From Hyphomicrobiales bacterium (GTDB taxonomy: Bacteria > Pseudomonadota > Alphaproteobacteria > Rhizobiales > MH13): DNA of 64,000 nucleotides. The DNA lies in assembly GCA_046290645.1 (NCBI GenBank), contig JBKAGZ010000004.1, positions 196,327 through 260,326 of the forward strand. The letters run 5' to 3'. Position 1 is the first letter of the stretch. The number at the start of each line of letters is the position of its first letter. The translations under genes were made by a program, and so were the position numbers. Positions 12,052 through 19,583 of this stretch are shown here, piece after piece. The notes below the pieces were generated by a model. That model ran no database searches, had not been told where the DNA came from, and was given only the letters and a program-made list of their open reading frames with translations.

Positions 12052-12522
12052 TTAGCGGCGTGTGCGCTGCTCAAAGGTCTTTTTCGCTCGCTTGTGCGCA
12101 TCAGCGATCAGCGGAATGCAGGCCTGCCACGTTGCTTCAGTGGGTGAGAGAACCGCAATCCACCCCATCCAGGCATAGACCGGATGCGGCATGATCATGT
12201 CTGCTTGGGCGAAGTCCCAGGGCCCTTCGATGGTTGCGCCGTTGCCAGGTCGCTGCGGTGTCGCGCCAAACATCGAAACATAGGTTGACTTCTGAACGCC
12301 AATGTTGAGCCGCCAAATACCCTCTCGATCGAGATTTGAGCCGCGGTCATTCTCGCCATCCTTTTCTTTGACGGTGGCAAAGTAGGTGCCGCGCTTCAAA
12401 GCCTCTCCTGGATTGTAGAAGTAAGATGTTTCACCCCAGGCCTGCCTTGGGGTAACACCCGGCAATCGCGCCATGATATGATCATGGACGCTGCTGATTG
12501 TGATCCATGTGCTTTGCGACAT
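12052..12522 (-). CDS. DUF6194-like conserved protein
   Basis: Block WGETSYFYNPG...YFATVKEKDGENDRGSNLDREGIWRLNIGV...MPHPVYAWMGW matches my recollection of DUF6194. The start is ambiguous: 12522 overlaps the YafY gene by 41 nt, and ATG 12474 is the alternative. The stop is 2 nt from the convergent TetR stop. Confidence 0.6.
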   Translation of the reverse strand: MSQSTWITISSVHDHIMARLPGVTPRQAWGETSYFYNPGEALKRGTYFATVKEKDGENDRGSNLDREGIWRLNIGVQKSTYVSMFGATPQRPGNGATIEGPWDFAQADMIMPHPVYAWMGWIAVLSPTEATWQACIPLIADAHKRAKKTFEQRTRR

Positions 12523-13183
12523 GAAGGAGATAGTCCTCAATGGTTTTGCCGGGTTCGGTTGCGAAAACCTCTCCAGTAACGTCACACGCTGTCATCCGAT
12601 CAATGCGAAAAGCACGAAAACCCCGGCGCAGCTCACACCAGGCTGAACACGTCCATGCGCGCCCCCAGTAGTCGGTTTGAAGCGGGCGGATCACACGCTC
12701 ACTCAGTTTGTCGGATAAGCTTAGATAGGTAAGGTTGACCTTCAGCCTGTCCCGGATGGCGCGGCGCAAAAGCGGCATGTATTTGAGCCCGGCTCTAACA
12801 CGCTCAAACTCGTAAAGACCGAAACCCCAGCTATCGGGCGTCTTTCTTCGGTTGGGCGCATGACTTGCAATTTTCTCATGCAGCGTTCTAGCGGCGCCCT
12901 GAAGTTCGGTATCCGCCACTTCCTGCACAATCGACATCCCAAGGCTGAGAGCTTCAAGTTCACTGAGCGATAACGCCAGGGGCGGAAGAAAGATCGGCTC
13001 GCGTAGGAGATAGCCAACGCCCCGCTCGCCTTCGATTGGCACCCCGGACGCAACGAGCGTGCCGATGTCCCTGTAAATCGTGCGCTCAGAAACCTCCAAA
13101 GCCTCTGCCAAGTCGCGAGCCAGGTGAAGCCGTCCATCACGGACGATCTCCACAATCTCGCTGAGCCGCTCACTGCGCCTCAT
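12482..13183 (-). CDS. YafY family transcriptional regulator (HTH + WYL domain)
   Basis: N-terminal RRSERLSEIVEIV...ARDLAEALEVSERTIYRDI HTH followed by a WYL-type C-terminal region. Confidence 0.85.
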   Translation of the reverse strand: MRRSERLSEIVEIVRDGRLHLARDLAEALEVSERTIYRDIGTLVASGVPIEGERGVGYLLREPIFLPPLALSLSELEALSLGMSIVQEVADTELQGAARTLHEKIASHAPNRRKTPDSWGFGLYEFERVRAGLKYMPLLRRAIRDRLKVNLTYLSLSDKLSERVIRPLQTDYWGRAWTCSAWCELRRGFRAFRIDRMTACDVTGEVFATEPGKTIEDYLLHVAKHMDHNQQRP

Positions 13184-13675: not shown

Positions 13676-13957
13676 CTATGTCTCATCTTCAGGCGTTTCA
13701 GAGGATTTTTGGCTTGATCGCGCGCCGTCAGAGTTTGGATGTGTGCCGCGTGGCCAACGCTTGGCCTTGCGCATACCGTGGATGGCTACGCCAAGGACCA
13801 AAACCGCGAGAACCAGCGGCACCGCATGAAAAGGTGACGCCAAGAAATGATCGACCAAAGATGATGGTGCCATTGCATCATGATGACCGGGATGCGCCGC
13901 TGCGATCTGCGTTGAAGCCAGCATCAAGAGTGCGGTTCTCGATATCAGAGTCTTCAC
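13676..13957 (-). CDS. small secreted/membrane-anchored His-bearing protein (signal peptide, HPGHHD, one TM)
   Basis: GTG 13957 is preceded by AAGGGA and lies 1 nt after the His-rich gene stop. Predicted signal peptide KTLISRTALLMLASTQIAAA, then HPGHHDAMAPSSLVDHFLASPFH, then TM segment VPLVLAVLVLGVAI. Last gene of the riboswitch operon. Confidence 0.55.
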   Translation of the reverse strand: MKTLISRTALLMLASTQIAAAHPGHHDAMAPSSLVDHFLASPFHAVPLVLAVLVLGVAIHGMRKAKRWPRGTHPNSDGARSSQKSSETPEDET

Positions 13958-13958
13958 G

Positions 13959-14456
13959 TTAGTTCCCTTCGGTTTGAGTGTGTTTGGCATCGAGTGCGTC
14001 GACCAAGTCGACATCGGCCCGTTCGGTCAGCGACACGTAAACGAATGTCATGGTCTCACGCTCTTCAACCATGGATGCTGGGTAAGGAAGGTAGACCAGG
14101 TCGCGCTGCGCAAACGCTGGCGATGCTGTGCCCAGCTGCCATTTGCTTTCAATCACGGTATCAACGAGGTGCATCTTTAGGCCATCGCTCCCCGTACGAC
14201 TGATCGGGATGCCGGCCAGCTCCATGAAGGAAGGTTTATCGTCTGCCTTTCGGAACCCCTCAATAAAGGATGCGGCCAAGGACTGCAGACGATGCTGACG
14301 CTCCTTTTTTGGATCAACATGCACATGGCTGTGCATGTGCTCGTGGTCATGCGTGTGATTGTGACCAACGCCATGGTCATGGCCATGATGATCATGCCCA
14401 TCGTGATCATGGCTGTGGGTGTGGGTGTGCTCGTTTTGATGGCGATGTTGGCTCAT
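13959..14456 (-). CDS. extremely His-rich protein, putative metallochaperone
   Basis: 20 of the first 46 residues are His (HTHTHSHDHDGHDHHGHDHGVGHNHTHDHEHMHSHVH), followed by a ~110-aa non-repetitive domain. The ATG overlaps the ureohydrolase stop (ATGA). Confidence 0.8.
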   Translation of the reverse strand: MSQHRHQNEHTHTHSHDHDGHDHHGHDHGVGHNHTHDHEHMHSHVHVDPKKERQHRLQSLAASFIEGFRKADDKPSFMELAGIPISRTGSDGLKMHLVDTVIESKWQLGTASPAFAQRDLVYLPYPASMVEERETMTFVYVSLTERADVDLVDALDAKHTQTEGN

Positions 14457-15715
14457 GGCTTCAAATCCCAGCCTTGAGAGTCAACATCCGGCCCCTGAGG
14501 AATGGAAACAGGTTTGTCGATGATCGCCTTGTGAGAGCCGAGCTTCCCGTGGCTCACAAGAGTGCCAAGCACATCAACGATGACCCGTGTGGCCAGCAGC
14601 GCCGTGATGTCTGAGGTGTCATAGGGCGGAGAAACCTCGACCACTTCGAGCCCGCATATGCCTTCCTTGGCAACCAGCGAGACAAGCTCTAGCGCTTCAC
14701 GTGGCAGAAACCCGCCGGGCTCCGGCCAACCGGTTCCAGGCACGAAGCCACAATCAACGCTGTCAATGTCGAATGAGATGTAGACTGCGTCCGCGTCTTT
14801 CCATGCAAGTTCAAGCGCACGTGCTGCGGTTTCCGCCAGTCCCATCTCTTCGATGTCACGCATTGTAAAAATGTTGGTGTTGCGCTTGCGCGCTTCCTCA
14901 ACGCCCTCGCGCGGCACCTGCCAACCACCAATGCCCACCTGCACCAGGTTGACTGCCGGCACATTGGCAAGGTCCGTCGCATGGAACCAGGGCGTGGTGT
15001 GCATGCGTTCATCCAAGTCTTTTTCCTGGATGTCGATATGCCGGTCGAAATGGACAATACCGATGCGTTTGGACGTACATTGGGCAATACCGCGCACGCA
15101 TGGGAAGCCAATCGAATGGTCACCGCCGATCATGATCGGCAGCGCACCTGAGGATGCAACATGGCTGACTGCACGGGAAACCTGATCAAAGGTTTTTTCG
15201 ATGTTGGCGGGAATTGTGAAAACATCCCCGACATCACACAGCGTCATCTGCTCGCGTAGATCGATACCCATTTCATAATTGTAAGGCGTGTAGAGCGCCG
15301 AGATCTTGCGCACGCCTTGCGGGCCAAAGCGTGTGCCTGGGCGATAGGTGGTGCCGCCATCAAAAGGCACACCAATGATGGCTGCATCATAATTACCAAC
15401 CAGAGTGGCGTCTTCAATGTAAGGTGCCTTCAAGAAGGTGTTGATGCCGGCATAATGGGGCAGCTCACCACGGGCGAATGTTGGTATCGTCTTGTCTTCC
15501 AGACTGTCGGAGCCTGTCAGTCCCATACGCAGCGCCCAGGCGCGTTCTTGCTGCCAGGCGGCGGACGGCAGCGTGCCTTCCTTCTGGGCAGACTTCCAGC
15601 CGCGCATCTGGAGCTTGTCAAAATCAGGGTGGTGCTGCCGCGCACGACGGCCCTTTTTGGCCCGGTCCGATTTCCGAGAGGCACGGCGTGGCCCCATTCC
15701 AAACAGTTCTTCCAT
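14453..15715 (-). CDS. arginase-fold ureohydrolase (agmatinase family), candidate guanidine hydrolase
   Basis: Family motifs IGGDHSIGFP, HFDRHID, SFDIDSVD and GLEVVEVSPPYD. There is a ~70-residue Arg/Lys-rich N-terminal extension relative to SpeB-type enzymes. GGAG lies 7 nt upstream of the ATG. The gene is in a guanidine-I riboswitch operon. Confidence 0.85.
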   Translation of the reverse strand: MEELFGMGPRRASRKSDRAKKGRRARQHHPDFDKLQMRGWKSAQKEGTLPSAAWQQERAWALRMGLTGSDSLEDKTIPTFARGELPHYAGINTFLKAPYIEDATLVGNYDAAIIGVPFDGGTTYRPGTRFGPQGVRKISALYTPYNYEMGIDLREQMTLCDVGDVFTIPANIEKTFDQVSRAVSHVASSGALPIMIGGDHSIGFPCVRGIAQCTSKRIGIVHFDRHIDIQEKDLDERMHTTPWFHATDLANVPAVNLVQVGIGGWQVPREGVEEARKRNTNIFTMRDIEEMGLAETAARALELAWKDADAVYISFDIDSVDCGFVPGTGWPEPGGFLPREALELVSLVAKEGICGLEVVEVSPPYDTSDITALLATRVIVDVLGTLVSHGKLGSHKAIIDKPVSIPQGPDVDSQGWDLKP

Positions 15716-15730: not shown

Positions 15731-16543
15731 TCAGTTAGGGTGTGCTGCTGGGGTGCTGAAGAGCTGTTCTGGCTCGGGCACCGTTGCACCGGTCTTTTGA
15801 TCAAGTGGTAGGTCGTAAGTGATGGTCGCCCCGTAGCGCTCCGGCGCGTGGGGGTCATGGCGCGTCTTGTCAAAAACGAGCACGCGGCTTCCAAGCTTGA
15901 AGGCTTCGTTGATATCGTGGGTGACCATGAAGATGGTCATTTCGAGCTCTTGCCAGAGGTCGAGCAGCAACGCGTGCATGTCCAGCCGGATGCCCGGGTC
16001 GAGCGCGCCAAAAGGTTCATCAAGAAGCAGAACGCTAGGTCGCTTGAGAAGCGCTTGCGCAATCGCCAATCGCTGCTGCATGCCGCCCGAAAGTTGGGTT
16101 GGAAAGCGCTTGCGTGCGGCCGCCAACCCAATTTTCTCCAGCGTTTCGCTGACTGCCTCGCGCGCTTGGCGGCGCGTGGCACCGAATAGCCGCCCCGTCA
16201 CAAAACTGCGCTCAAATTCGCTCGCCAGTATCAGATTGTCTTCGACCGACAAATGCGGAAACACCGAATACCGCTGGAACACGATGCCGCGGTCGGGGGT
16301 TGGCTCACCTGGCAGTGGCTCGCCATCAAGCAGGATCTCACCGCGCGTCGGTGTTTCCTGCGACAACAGCATGCGCAGGAATGTTGATTTCCCACAGCCG
16401 GACGCACCAACAATCGTGCAAAACGCTCCTTGGTCCACATCAAGCGAAACACGCTCCAGCACAATCGTATCGCCATAAGACTTGCCAACATTGCGCACAG
16501 CAAGCTTCGGTAGGGCGCCAGTCTCTGCCGCAGCCTCACTCAT
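15731..16543 (-). CDS. ABC transporter ATP-binding protein (NitT/TauT family)
   Basis: Walker A GASGCGKST, signature LSGGMQQR, Walker B LLLDEPF. Overlaps the permease gene by 4 nt. Confidence 0.9.
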   Translation of the reverse strand: MSEAAAETGALPKLAVRNVGKSYGDTIVLERVSLDVDQGAFCTIVGASGCGKSTFLRMLLSQETPTRGEILLDGEPLPGEPTPDRGIVFQRYSVFPHLSVEDNLILASEFERSFVTGRLFGATRRQAREAVSETLEKIGLAAARKRFPTQLSGGMQQRLAIAQALLKRPSVLLLDEPFGALDPGIRLDMHALLLDLWQELEMTIFMVTHDINEAFKLGSRVLVFDKTRHDPHAPERYGATITYDLPLDQKTGATVPEPEQLFSTPAAHPN

Positions 16544-17361
16544 AAGCTTTCACCTTGCATATGGTGCCAAGGGAAAGCTCGGCGCGAGAGCATTAAAAGC
16601 AACTGATCCAAAATGTAGGCGAGCAGGGTGATCCACAGCACGTAAGGCAAGATGACATCCATCGCCAAAAACCGCCTGACCAGAAAGATGCGGTATCCAA
16701 GACCGGACGTTGATGCGATGGCTTCGGCGGAGATGAGGAAAATCCAGCCAGGCACAAGCCCAAGCCGGACCGCTGTAATCAGCTTGGGCAACACTTGAGG
16801 CAGAACCAGTCGTACGATCATGTGCCAGGTGTTGGCGCCCAATGTCTGGGCCTTGATAACCAGCTCTTTGGGGATGTCGATAACGGCCTGGGCGATGGAT
16901 CGGGTCATGACCGGTGCAGTGCCCAGCGTGACCAACATGACCTTCGACGTTTCGCCCAAGCCAACCATGATGAAAAGGATTGGCAGGATGGTGATCGGTG
17001 GGATCAGCGAAATCGCCGCGACATAGGGCGCAAGCATCGTGCGCGCATGTGGCAGAAACCCGATCAAAATGCCCAGCACCAGTGCAACGGTAGTTGCCAG
17101 GCCCACCCCAATGCCGAGCCGCCAAAGACTATCGAACGTGTCGACCCACAACAGAAGGTCCCCTGTTCGGCGATCTGGGACAAAAGCCATGCGCCAGAAT
17201 GTTGACCCCATCTGCCCCAGTGAAGGCAACAGCTTGTCGGCTGGGTTTTCCAGGCGGCGATAGTGGCTCGCCACCGCGTAGGCAATCACAGTCGCCGCAA
17301 AGGGAAGCGCGACGAGTGTGAAAGCCGCAACCCGGCCAGGGGATCGATTGATCAGGCGCAT
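16540..17361 (-). CDS. ABC transporter permease (NitT/TauT family)
   Basis: 273-aa polytopic membrane protein of the BPD-transport type, lying between the SBP and ATPase genes. Confidence 0.9.
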   Translation of the reverse strand: MRLINRSPGRVAAFTLVALPFAATVIAYAVASHYRRLENPADKLLPSLGQMGSTFWRMAFVPDRRTGDLLLWVDTFDSLWRLGIGVGLATTVALVLGILIGFLPHARTMLAPYVAAISLIPPITILPILFIMVGLGETSKVMLVTLGTAPVMTRSIAQAVIDIPKELVIKAQTLGANTWHMIVRLVLPQVLPKLITAVRLGLVPGWIFLISAEAIASTSGLGYRIFLVRRFLAMDVILPYVLWITLLAYILDQLLLMLSRRAFPWHHMQGESL

Positions 17362-17387: not shown

Positions 17388-18449
17388 TTACAGCGCGCCG
17401 TCAGCTGCCATCTGCATGTAGGTGGTGTCAAAGCGCAGCTGCACATTGTCAGGGTCACCAAAGATCGACCCGTCGGGGAAGCTCACACCGACGAACTCCG
17501 GTGATGGTGCACCTTCACCAAGAATACCGTTGTCAAACAGGAATTCAGCAACGAATTGCATCGTTGTTGAAAGCTCAGGCGCGCTTGTGAAGGCCACCGC
17601 ATCGGCAGGATCATAAAACATGGTGGTTGTATCAAGCTGGGCCTGATAGCCAGCCAAATCGGTGCCTGATGCGGATGCCAGCGCATCAAGCACATCCGTA
17701 TCACCTGCCGCCATAAGATCCATCATCTCGTACCAAGCGCCAACCAGCGCCTTGCCAAAGTCTGGATTGGCCGCAAGCGTGTCGGTGTTGACCATCATGA
17801 CGTCAATGATTTCGCCGGGGATGTTCGAGGAATCAAAAACCTGCGTGGAACCGGGCATGGCAGTGATTTCCGACAGGAGTGGGTTCCACGTCACAACCGA
17901 AGTAACATCGTCGGTGGCATAGGCCGCGATCATGTCAGCGTCCGATGTGTTGACGACGGTTAGGTCACGTTCGCTCAAACCAACGCCATCAAGCGCACGG
18001 GCCAGCAGATAGTGTGAGACCGACAGTTCGACGAGATTGACGTTTTGACCGGCGAGATCGTCAACGCTGTCACCATCTTTCAAGACAATACCATCATTGC
18101 CGTTTGAGAAATCACCGACGATCAGTGCTGTTGTGTCGACCCCACCGCCAGCGGGAATGGAAAGTGCGTCCATGTTCGTCATGGAACAGCCGTCGAATGC
18201 ACCGGCCGTGTATTGGTTGATAGATTCCACATAGTCGTTGATCTGAACGATCTCGACGTCAATGCCGTATTTGTCGGCCCATTTATCCATGATGCCGGAT
18301 GTTTGTAGGTAGCCCCATGGCATCCAACCCACATAGATCGACCAGCAAACGGAGAACTCGGTCCGTTCCTGCGCCGATGCCGCTTGGGGAGCGCCCAGCG
18401 TCAGCAGTGTTGCAGACACCAGTGCCGCGGTTTTGATTGTCTTGATCAT
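17388..18449 (-). CDS. ABC transporter substrate-binding protein (NMT1/NitT/TauT-like), candidate guanidine-binding
   Basis: Signal peptide ALVSATLLTLGAPQAASAQE. AAAGAGG Shine-Dalgarno lies upstream. First gene downstream of the guanidine-I riboswitch. Confidence 0.85.
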   Translation of the reverse strand: MIKTIKTAALVSATLLTLGAPQAASAQERTEFSVCWSIYVGWMPWGYLQTSGIMDKWADKYGIDVEIVQINDYVESINQYTAGAFDGCSMTNMDALSIPAGGGVDTTALIVGDFSNGNDGIVLKDGDSVDDLAGQNVNLVELSVSHYLLARALDGVGLSERDLTVVNTSDADMIAAYATDDVTSVVTWNPLLSEITAMPGSTQVFDSSNIPGEIIDVMMVNTDTLAANPDFGKALVGAWYEMMDLMAAGDTDVLDALASASGTDLAGYQAQLDTTTMFYDPADAVAFTSAPELSTTMQFVAEFLFDNGILGEGAPSPEFVGVSFPDGSIFGDPDNVQLRFDTTYMQMAADGAL

Positions 18450-18553
18450 TGATACGCGCCTCTTTGCTCATTCGGCGATGTGATCGCCATGGTGAAAAGA
18501 GGTTTGAGCACGCATACCGGGAGAAGGTTCGCGCGCGCAAACCAGTGCAGTTA

Positions 18554-18655
18554 TCTCCCGGGATTTTGTCCCGCCGTGTTCACCGACCTGATCGCCGGTT
18601 GGCATCTCTCGGACCTGCATCATTTGCTAATATCAAATGATCGGAACCCTAGACG
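18554..18655 (-). promoter_or_regulatory. guanidine-I (ykkC) riboswitch aptamer
   Basis: Minus-strand RNA: GUCUAGGGUUCCGAUCAUUUGAUAUUAGCAAAUGAUGCAGGUCCGAGAGAUGCCAACCGGCGAUCAGGUCGGUGAACACGGCGGGACAAAAUCCCGGGAGAUAAC. It contains the three hallmark blocks CUAGGGUUCCG, GGUCCGAGAG and ACACGGCGGGA..AAA..CCCGGGAGA, plus a perfect 8-bp hairpin AUCAUUUG/CAAAUGAU. Confidence 0.9.
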
Positions 18656-18678
18656 CCCGCTGCACATACGCCTTGCTA

Positions 18679-18694
18679 TTCAACATTCGTGCCA
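18679..18694 (-). promoter_or_regulatory. candidate sigma-54 (-24/-12) promoter TGGCACGAATGTTGAA
   Basis: Minus-strand TGGCACG-N4-TTGA lies ~27 nt upstream of the riboswitch CUAGGG block. It matches the TGGCACG-N4-TTGC consensus except for the last base of the -12 element. Confidence 0.3.
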
Positions 18695-19583
18695 GTTGAC
18701 CAGAAGCCCGCCTGGACCGGACCTTGGACTTGATAGAGTTTGGTATAGGCGGCTTTGGCGCCTCTCTTTTGGGCGTTTGTGCAGGCATGCCCTTTTATTA
18801 TGCAATCCATGTAAAGCGCATCGCCGGGCTTTGGGCGCCCATCAGGTGGACCCAAGTGATAGGTCAGAACTGCCGGTGTGCGTGCATGATGTGATTGCAG
18901 CAACGCATTGGAGACGTTGGCCCACTCATGCGCGGTTGGCGCAGCCAGCCGCATGACCAATGCCTGTAACCATTCAGTACGATGAGGTCCGGTCGTCGGA
19001 AGGTCGCAAGAGCCAGCCGTTTCTCCGGCTGATTTGCCAGAGCCGGACTCGTGCAGCGAAAGCCATTACTTCTTATACAACAATTTGGAAAACATGAGGG
19101 GCTCGCCGCCACCGCTATAAGCGGTTTCTGTTTCAATCCGTAGATCGAAACGAGTTCATAATGCCACGGCCATGCGCGGTTGATTCACCGAAAGAGTATT
19201 TGGGGGTCAAACGCACCCCGATTGATCGTTGAGCCCCGCTGCCCACGCCTTAGGTTTCGACTGCAGAACCTACTTGGCAAATCCAGGCAGCGCTGCAGAA
19301 CAGGACCGGGTTGGGCGAAAAGCAGACCTTGACAGCGGCGCAACCTCATTTCCTGGAAAATCTGTATATCAGCTCTAAGCGGCATGCTGCAGCAGAGGCC
19401 TCATCCAGGTGGGGAACGGTCATCCAGTTTTTGTTTTTGCCAGAGCCAAAAAAGCTAAAAGGCCAGTCGCCCGAACAAGCCTGTTTCTGGCTATGCCAAC
19501 TGCGGCAGTCCGACCATGATCATCATTGAACTGTAAGCAAATCGTCATGGCCATGTCATGGAAACGCTCCACTGATAGCAGCG

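Follow-up and report, generated by a model that had tools for sequence, protein, structure and literature searches.

In the 64-kb stretch of DNA analysed here (hereafter the window), a set of minus-strand genes begins with the gene of an ABC substrate-binding protein, and the leader ahead of this gene raises the question of what it senses and how it could act on the genes behind it. A sequence-only reading had proposed a guanidine-I (ykkC) riboswitch at this place. The explanation that fits the locus best as a whole, and in which we have high confidence, is a guanidine-I riboswitch that leads an operon for guanidine import and hydrolysis, with a probable sigma-54-type start and a putative switch that would turn translation ON.

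A guanidine-I aptamer and its conservation among related loci

When the 4227 families of Rfam were searched against the window with Infernal, RF00442 (Guanidine-I) was the sole family above threshold in the whole 64 kb. Its match on the minus strand, at 18553-18663, scored 76.1 bits (E = 9.6e-12), above the gathering score of 63, and spanned the model in full length (positions 1-107 of 107), so the covariance-model check that the sequence-only reading had proposed was passed. No second Rfam family appeared at the aptamer site, even at E ≤ 1, and a covariance model of our own gave the window aptamer 83.4 bits. The architecture that had been claimed was recovered as well: the three ykkC blocks (CUAGGGUUCCG, GGUCCGAGAG and ACACGGCGGGACAAAAUCCCGGGAGA) lie in order on the minus strand, a perfect 8-bp hairpin stands between the first two, the ACCG...CGGU helix between the second and third is P2, and the 105 nt to the start of the binding-protein gene are correct, counted from the A of GGGAGA at 18554 to the ATG at 18449. 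The extent first given, 18554-18655, had the site right and fell slightly short of the Rfam match. The pocket elements of the aptamer in the window are GGUCC-GA-GAG, ACACGGCGGG, CAAAAU and CCCGGGAGA. This RNA is a genuine riboswitch of a well-known guanidine-sensing class, and the call was thus correct but ordinary, apart from some minor peculiarities.

Table 1. Features of the leader and operon, with positions in the window
Feature	Position	Strand	Remark
Sigma-54-type -24/-12 promoter-like site TGGCAC-GAATG-TTGA	18694-18680	-	motif match with one deviation
P0-like helix, 5' strand GUGCAG	18665-18660	-	abuts P1; partner strand CUGCAC
Guanidine-I (ykkC subtype 1) aptamer, helices P1/P1a/P1b/P2/P3	18553..18663	-	RF00442 and own covariance model
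Conserved block 1, CUAGGGUUCCG	18652-18642	-	
Perfect 8-bp hairpin, AUCAUUUG / CAAAUGAU	18641-18634 / 18626-18619	-	between blocks 1 and 2
Conserved block 2, GGUCCGAGAG	18615-18606	-	
P2 helix, ACCG...CGGU	between blocks 2 and 3	-	
Conserved block 3, ACACGGCGGGACAAAAUCCCGGGAGA	18579-18554	-	
3' strand of P3 and tail, CCGGGAGA, switching sequence	18561-18554	-	pairs in P3 or with UCUCCCGG
P0-like helix, 3' strand CUGCAC	18550-18545	-	7 nt after P3
Local hairpin GGUUUGC-GCGC-GCGAACC	18543-18526	-	folds
Segment 1, GGUUUGCGCGCGC, hairpin 5' half and loop	18543-18531	-	can pair with segment 3
Anti-P3 sequence, UCUCCCGG	18524-18517	-	complementary to 18561-18554
Segment 3, AUGCGUGCUCAAACC, then anti-Shine-Dalgarno CCUCUUU (18502-18496)	18515-18496	-	
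Variable central hairpin GGCGAU-CAC-AUCGCC, within sequestering helix	18488-18474	-	folds
Shine-Dalgarno AAAGAGG	18465-18459	-	
Spacer, CGCGUAUC	18458-18451	-	CGCGUAU part (18458-18452) pairs with segment 3
ATG of first gene	18449-18447	-	
ABC substrate-binding protein, NMT1/TauA-like, GimA-type	17388..18449	-	TIGR03427, 549.6 bits, cut-off 333.9
ABC permease, TauC/SsuC-like	16540..17361	-	PF00528
ABC ATPase	15731..16543	-	PF00005
Guanidine hydrolase (GdmH) orthologue, arginase family	14453..15715	-	PF00491; phmmer against PDB
His-rich 165-aa protein	13959..14456	-	start overlaps GdmH stop by 4 nt

Relatives of the locus were collected by a scan with one genome per species, which yielded 80 loci, nearly all from marine Alphaproteobacteria, with binding proteins 68-88% identical. 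The closest genome is a Cohaesibacter MAG (88% identity in the binding protein), and the exact locus, or its binding protein, is recorded only in an unannotated Logan assembly (run SRR22269038). A strict regular expression for the three blocks recovered 47 of the 80 loci and a looser one added few; we replaced it by a covariance model, built from 48 leaders. In 78 of the 80 loci, this model found one aptamer, on the correct strand and directly ahead of the binding-protein gene (31 of these 78 were absent from the model-building set). Of 11 related loci to which RF00442 itself was applied, 10 passed its gathering score, and so did two annotated plasmids; a BLAST search of the leader against plasmids gave two matches only, which served as annotated comparators. 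The aptamer of one locus, L007, lies under the Rfam gathering score, yet reaches 79 bits by our own model.

The helices are conserved as helices. In an alignment of 79 sequences, standard pairs filled 95.9% of the pair cells, compared with 81.4% after shuffling and 18-57% when the partners were slid along each other. Compensatory changes were found in 14 of 23 pairs, with double changes in 298 cells, and none of 500 shuffles matched any of the observed covariation measures. Covariation supports the helices P1, P1a, P1b, P2 and P3 as a set, the shuffle and slide controls being far lower; the four pairs of P3 are nearly invariant and so uninformative. Alignment A1, of 48 sequences, shows no change in ACACGG or GGGAGA; over all 78 sequences these invariant cores shrink to CACGG and GGGAG.

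Two departures from the usual aptamer sequence occur among the relatives. In 14 leaders that precede the same GdmH operon (L008, L017, L019, L023, L025, L026, L036, L041, L052, L053, L063, L066, L069 and L079), GGUCC-AA-GAG replaces GGUCC-GA-GAG; the G that is changed to A is a pocket guanine that has been called highly conserved (PMC8457001), and these leaders may have an altered affinity or specificity. The bulge G is canonical in the window. Seven loci (L003, L007, L008, L015, L017, L020 and L024) carry GGGAUCC...GGACC instead of GGGUUCC...GGUCC, so that two unpaired positions have changed together from U to A, which suggests a non-canonical contact.

Operon content, predicted ligand and the end-closing helix

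The riboswitch is followed by five tightly packed minus-strand genes, for the binding protein, a permease, an ATPase, GdmH and a His-rich protein (Table 1), and this order is kept wherever the contig is long enough; the transporter is GimABC-like. In a phmmer search of the PDB, the fourth product aligned over residues 44-393 with 7ESR/7OI1 (Sll1077) at 541 bits (E = 1.4e-161), the next families reaching at most 176 bits; Sll1077 of Synechocystis is the Ni-dependent guanidine hydrolase GdmH (PMC12186494, PMC12704784). A close solved structure for the substrate-binding protein was not found. From this gene content, the operon is predicted to carry out guanidine uptake and Ni-dependent hydrolysis for nitrogen. 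Past the operon the character of the genes changes, with a WYL-domain HTH regulator (12482-13183, minus strand) and a DUF6194 protein (12052-12585, minus strand) in overlapping ORFs, and an RND efflux pump also lies downstream.

The His-rich protein, translationally coupled to GdmH, follows it wherever the locus extends that far, and its homologues are called "hypothetical protein" in all sources. It combines an HGxGHNH...HxHMHSHVH motif with a conserved C-terminal domain of ~110 aa, and it matched no Pfam or NCBIfam family (for Pfam, none even at E ≤ 10). AlphaFold gave a moderate-confidence model (pLDDT 68.9), for which the PDB had no fold match at E ≤ 0.001. The ORFs next to gdmH on its downstream side matched no Pfam or NCBIfam family, and no HypA/HypB-like GhaA/GhaB was seen among them. 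Since GdmH needs nickel and no HypA/HypB-like gene is adjacent, nickel delivery is a reasonable guess for its role, and we regard the protein as a candidate nickel chaperone for GdmH. The product of a small ORF past the His-rich gene (13676-14014, minus strand) has a stretch that resembles a signal peptide, the motif HPGHH and a single transmembrane helix; weak tblastn matches to it were seen at the same position in L001, L017, L019 and L026, and on a Limimaricola plasmid (NZ_CP139692.1) a 54-aa hypothetical gene lies at the corresponding place.

Which ligand the aptamer would bind can be judged from its pocket and from its genes. Other RNAs with the ykkC fold sense ppGpp, PRPP or nucleoside diphosphates, and the marks by which we told the subtypes apart come from two papers (PMC6031431, PMC8457001): in all ppGpp/PRPP (subtype-2) RNAs, a pyrimidine stands where the two-residue P1 bulge otherwise has its adenine. 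In the window and in 78 of 78 homologues, the guanidine-type adenine of the GA bulge is present, and the pyrimidine of subtype 2 was not found at its position; the subtype 1 pocket is completed by the ACGG/GGGAG internal loop and by a P3 loop rich in A. The genes behind the aptamer (TIGR03427 binding protein, permease, ATPase and GdmH) are those associated with guanidine, and the same set occurs in the 78 loci. With this adenine kept and with this gene content, guanidine is the only reasonable ligand, and the window aptamer is predicted to bind it. The adenine bulge and the genes, together with the RF00442 score and the presence of the aptamer in 78 of 80 loci, uphold the guanidine-I assignment of the sequence-only reading. 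The same riboswitch class binds guanidine with a Kd of about 58 µM and switches gdmH on in Synechocystis (PMC12704784).

The leader also contains a helix that the Rfam model does not cover. Sequences flanking the aptamer on its two sides are joined by a P0-like helix of 6 bp, the 5' strand of which abuts P1 and the 3' strand of which follows P3 after 7 nt. Its core GCAG:CUGC (4 bp) is paired in 71-75 of the 78 homologues, changes on both sides occur in six of seven pairs, and 0 of 500 shuffles reached its covariation score. Compensatory variants are GCGG:CCGC (L014, L060), GAACAU:GUGUUC (L069, L077) and, in several loci, GCGCAG:CUGCGC. These column-wise counts are conservative, as MAFFT had displaced four rows, the window included, by 2 nt; we used them for the P0-like helix because a test on the longest helix (native 5.96 versus cross-locus 5.65) was uninformative for a helix that is mostly conserved. 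A helix formed from both ends (P0) has been described in PRPP and ppGpp aptamers and is reported to be neither present nor conserved in guanidine aptamers (PMC6031431). In the guanidine-I leader of a carboxylase-type operon from Caballeronia, we saw no P0-like pairing.

This helix is what speaks for a different ligand, namely for a variant like those of ykkC subtype 2 that would have ppGpp, PRPP, a substituted guanidine or a nucleoside diphosphate as its ligand; an ends-formed helix is described as a PRPP/ppGpp feature that guanidine aptamers lack (PMC6031431). Yet the P0-like helix by itself is insufficient for membership in subtype 2: the RNA retains the discriminating adenine, in contrast to the pyrimidine of subtype 2 (PMC6031431, PMC8457001), RF00442 is the sole Rfam family at the site up to E ≤ 1, the pocket blocks show the invariance described above, and the genes serve guanidine import and hydrolysis and not purine or amino-acid biosynthesis. 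We consider such a variant very unlikely. Less probable still, to the point of being negligible, is a chance or decayed match without regulatory role, or a stretch conserved for its coding. It draws on the ORFs that overlap the site, two of them mechanical, 18480..18956 (plus strand) and 18283..18540 (minus strand), and one a 45-aa ORF of the gene caller; the claim of the sequence-only reading that no ORF explains the region was therefore too broad as to the presence of ORFs and held as to what is conserved. Aptamer lengths ignore the reading frame, being spread evenly over the three residues modulo 3 (27/25/27 among 79 homologues), and the helices vary in a compensatory manner, which places the conservation at the level of RNA and not of coding. 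The called ORFs overlapping the aptamer have no Pfam match, and the E-value for RF00442 speaks against chance or decay, as does the recurrence of the aptamer, in the same place and with compensatory changes, in 78 of the 80 loci (one genome per species). A guanidine-I aptamer thus stays the preferred reading of this RNA.

A putative translational switch and a promoter-like site

Downstream of the aptamer, the leader can form two sets of helices. In one set, the switching sequence CCGGGAGA leaves P3 and pairs with UCUCCCGG, and AUGCGUGC...CCUCUUU (18515-18496) pairs with AAAGAGG-CGCGUAU (18465-18452), which buries the Shine-Dalgarno sequence (SD). In the other, P3 is formed and GGUUUGCGCGCGC (18543-18531) pairs with GCGUGCUCAAACC (18513-18501), which removes the lower half of the sequestering helix. 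As pairing between segments 1 and 3 would make a pseudoknot with the helix of the P3 strand and UCUCCCGG, the two sets are mutually exclusive. In the window, the CCGGGAGA:UCUCCCGG duplex has an energy of -16.4 kcal/mol (z = -3.2 versus shuffles); UCUCCCGG lies at a constant offset (27-29 nt) in the eight listed loci of the subgroup and in the window, with duplex z values of about -2 to -3. Segment 3 has two possible partners, segment 1 at -21.1 kcal/mol and the SD region at -15.9 kcal/mol.

This layout is common to 27 sequences (26 related loci and the window). The sequence of the local hairpin is conserved within this subgroup set, and the central hairpin differs in length and sequence among loci. 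The SD and its anti-SD covary across loci (AAAAGG/CCUUUU, AGGAG/CUCCU, AGAGG/CCUCU), and a GUGCGC-like element covaries with both of its partners. Pairing was more stable between native partners than between partners taken across loci, both for the sequestering helix (p = 0.0014) and for the competing helix (p = 0.0002), in permutation tests that leave shared ancestry uncorrected.

Folding models pointed to a modest shift. Folds constrained to the ON and OFF states were nearly isoenergetic (-82.8 versus -82.4 kcal/mol), the SD was unpaired to 0.28 in the ON fold versus 0.07 in the OFF fold and the AUG to 0.80 versus 0.47, and the core CCUCUUU:AAAGAGG pairing remained in both constrained minimum-energy folds, so that the modelled opening of the ribosome-binding site is partial. 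Over all 78 loci, the gain in modelled SD accessibility between a blocked and a free aptamer at equilibrium was small (0.32 to 0.35, Wilcoxon p = 0.018). The anti-SD duplex taken alone gave z = -1.2 in the window, which is not significant in a shuffle test, and duplex energies against mononucleotide shuffles have little power in this G+C-rich leader. Given the weak shift in accessibility and the low power of the shuffles, we relied on positional conservation and on native versus cross-locus pairing in the subgroup of the window.

A terminator-like site was found nowhere on the minus strand within 18200-19000, a range that includes the stretch from aptamer to ATG. With no terminator after the aptamer and with competing helices that covary, we infer that the window leader would act as a translational ON switch. 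In the mechanism that we propose, the P3 3' strand CCGGGAGA would, without guanidine, pair with UCUCCCGG (18524-18517) around the small hairpin; segment 3 and the anti-SD (18515-18496) would then be free to pair with the SD and spacer (18465-18452), and this sequestration would block translation of the first gene. With guanidine, the folded aptamer would hold both P3 and the end-closing helix (18665-18660 with 18550-18545), UCUCCCGG would be released, segment 1 (18543-18531) would pair with segment 3, and the ribosome-binding site would open, turning expression ON.

The same aptamer might instead control transcription for the most part, by intrinsic or Rho-dependent termination within the leader. 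Guanidine-I riboswitches are often called transcriptional (PMC11410670), and an untranslated leader could expose loading sites for Rho. Among the relatives, five Rhodobacterales leaders (L033, L042, L051, L062 and L068) carry C-rich stems followed by U-runs about 50-70 nt past the aptamer; the same leaders also hold a conserved GUUCCGCC...GGCGGAAC pairing ahead of the SD. The platforms thus differ between subgroups, with terminator-like ones in some, so that no single mechanism holds for the whole family, and one aptamer seems, from the leader sequences, to have been wired to different expression platforms in different lineages. In the window itself, however, the minus strand shows no terminator-like hairpin with a U-tract between aptamer and ATG, and the conserved downstream pairing partner is the SD with its spacer, which covaries. 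We therefore regard mainly transcriptional control as improbable here, if still worth some weight, and keep the translational switch as the preferred reading.

Sigma-54 promoters follow the consensus GG-N10-GC (-24 TGGCAC, -12 TTGC) and sit a short, fixed distance away from where the transcript begins. The window has a site of this type directly ahead of the riboswitch (Table 1), the one deviation being a -12 element that reads GA and not the consensus GC (C to A). Of 77 related loci, 28 have a perfect TGGCAY-N5-YTGC whose end lies 13-18 nt before the aptamer, where the background rate is 0.0015 per 60 nt; a motif of the sigma-54 type occurs at the same position in L001-L008, L010-L026 and others. 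The two loci without a riboswitch, L009 and L071, retain the sigma-54-type site. A scan of the leader region for a sigma-70-like promoter found none. Judging from the position of the promoter-like site, transcription probably starts at about 18668-18670, and the site would be functional in the window, with transcription depending on sigma-54.

Known guanidine systems and the meaning of the locus

Crystallised guanidine-I aptamers come from Dickeya dadantii, Sulfobacillus acidophilus and Burkholderia sp. TJI49. The window aptamer shares with the known members of RF00442 the helices P1/P1a/P1b/P2/P3, the pocket blocks, the GA bulge and the AAAA loop of P3, and with examples such as the gdmH leader of Synechocystis sp. 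PCC 6803 it shares guanidine genes and an expected ON logic. It differs from them in the extra covarying helix, which runs from 5' of P1 to 3' of the GGGAGA tail, and in a platform that looks translational and not terminator-based. Aptamers of subtypes 2a and 2b (ppGpp, PRPP) resemble the window RNA in overall fold, in the ends-formed P0 helix and in four-way junction topology, but they have a pyrimidine in place of the guanidine-type adenine, another gene context and other P0 linker lengths.

Operons of the carboxylase type consist of a riboswitch, an ABC transporter, a carboxyguanidine deiminase and a guanidine carboxylase. One such operon, on a plasmid of Caballeronia sp. M1242 (NZ_CP071131.1), has in common with the window a guanidine-I riboswitch immediately ahead of the genes for a TIGR03427-type binding protein, a permease and an ATPase; unlike the window, which has the hydrolase route, it encodes UAAP1/UAAP2 and urea (guanidine) carboxylase and has a second riboswitch, guanidine-II. 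The latter (L082, 10310-10356, 46.5 bits) lies before the urea (guanidine) carboxylase gene, and the pair of riboswitches agrees with an arrangement already described (PMC12186494).

In Synechocystis, the locus for guanidine assimilation consists of riboswitch-gdmH-ghaA-ghaB plus gimABC (Funck et al. 2022, cited in PMC12186494; PMC12704784). A guanidine-I riboswitch, a GdmH orthologue and an ABC importer with a substrate-binding protein are common to that locus and the window, and the sigma-54-like site of the window would, as an additional nitrogen-type promoter layer, parallel NtcA in Synechocystis (PMC12704784). In the window, by contrast, the transporter genes are the ones that come behind the riboswitch, in one apparent operon of five genes, the platform looks translational, and it is the His-rich protein that is found adjacent to gdmH in place of the HypA/HypB-like GhaA/GhaB.

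Much of this was to be anticipated. The guanidine-I class and its ties to ABC importers and GdmH are already known (PMC12186494, PMC12704784, PMC11410670), riboswitch-controlled guanidine hydrolase operons with ABC importers have been described in cyanobacteria (PMC12186494, PMC12704784), and specialists would expect a guanidine-I element at such an operon; only the end-closing helix and the His-rich partner could repay more work. A bolder reading, that marine alphaproteobacterial gimABC-gdmH leaders are a distinct guanidine-I variant, in which a P0-like helix closes a four-way junction as in the ppGpp/PRPP relatives and links ligand binding to a translational platform, and that a His-rich nickel-delivery protein replaces the HypA/HypB-like maturases, is one that we put forward tentatively and think somewhat more doubtful than probable.

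The leader and operon gain a secure functional label, guanidine uptake plus Ni-dependent hydrolysis. The P0-like helix bears on how the ykkC fold gained its P0, and the His-rich partner bears on a question raised by the comammox guanidinases (PMC11410670), that of nickel supply to GdmH in the absence of a neighbouring HypA/HypB-type chaperone. The GdmH route, so far known from cyanobacteria and comammox Nitrospira, is widespread under riboswitch control in marine Rhodobacterales and Hyphomicrobiales, in part of which it stands behind a sigma-54-type promoter.
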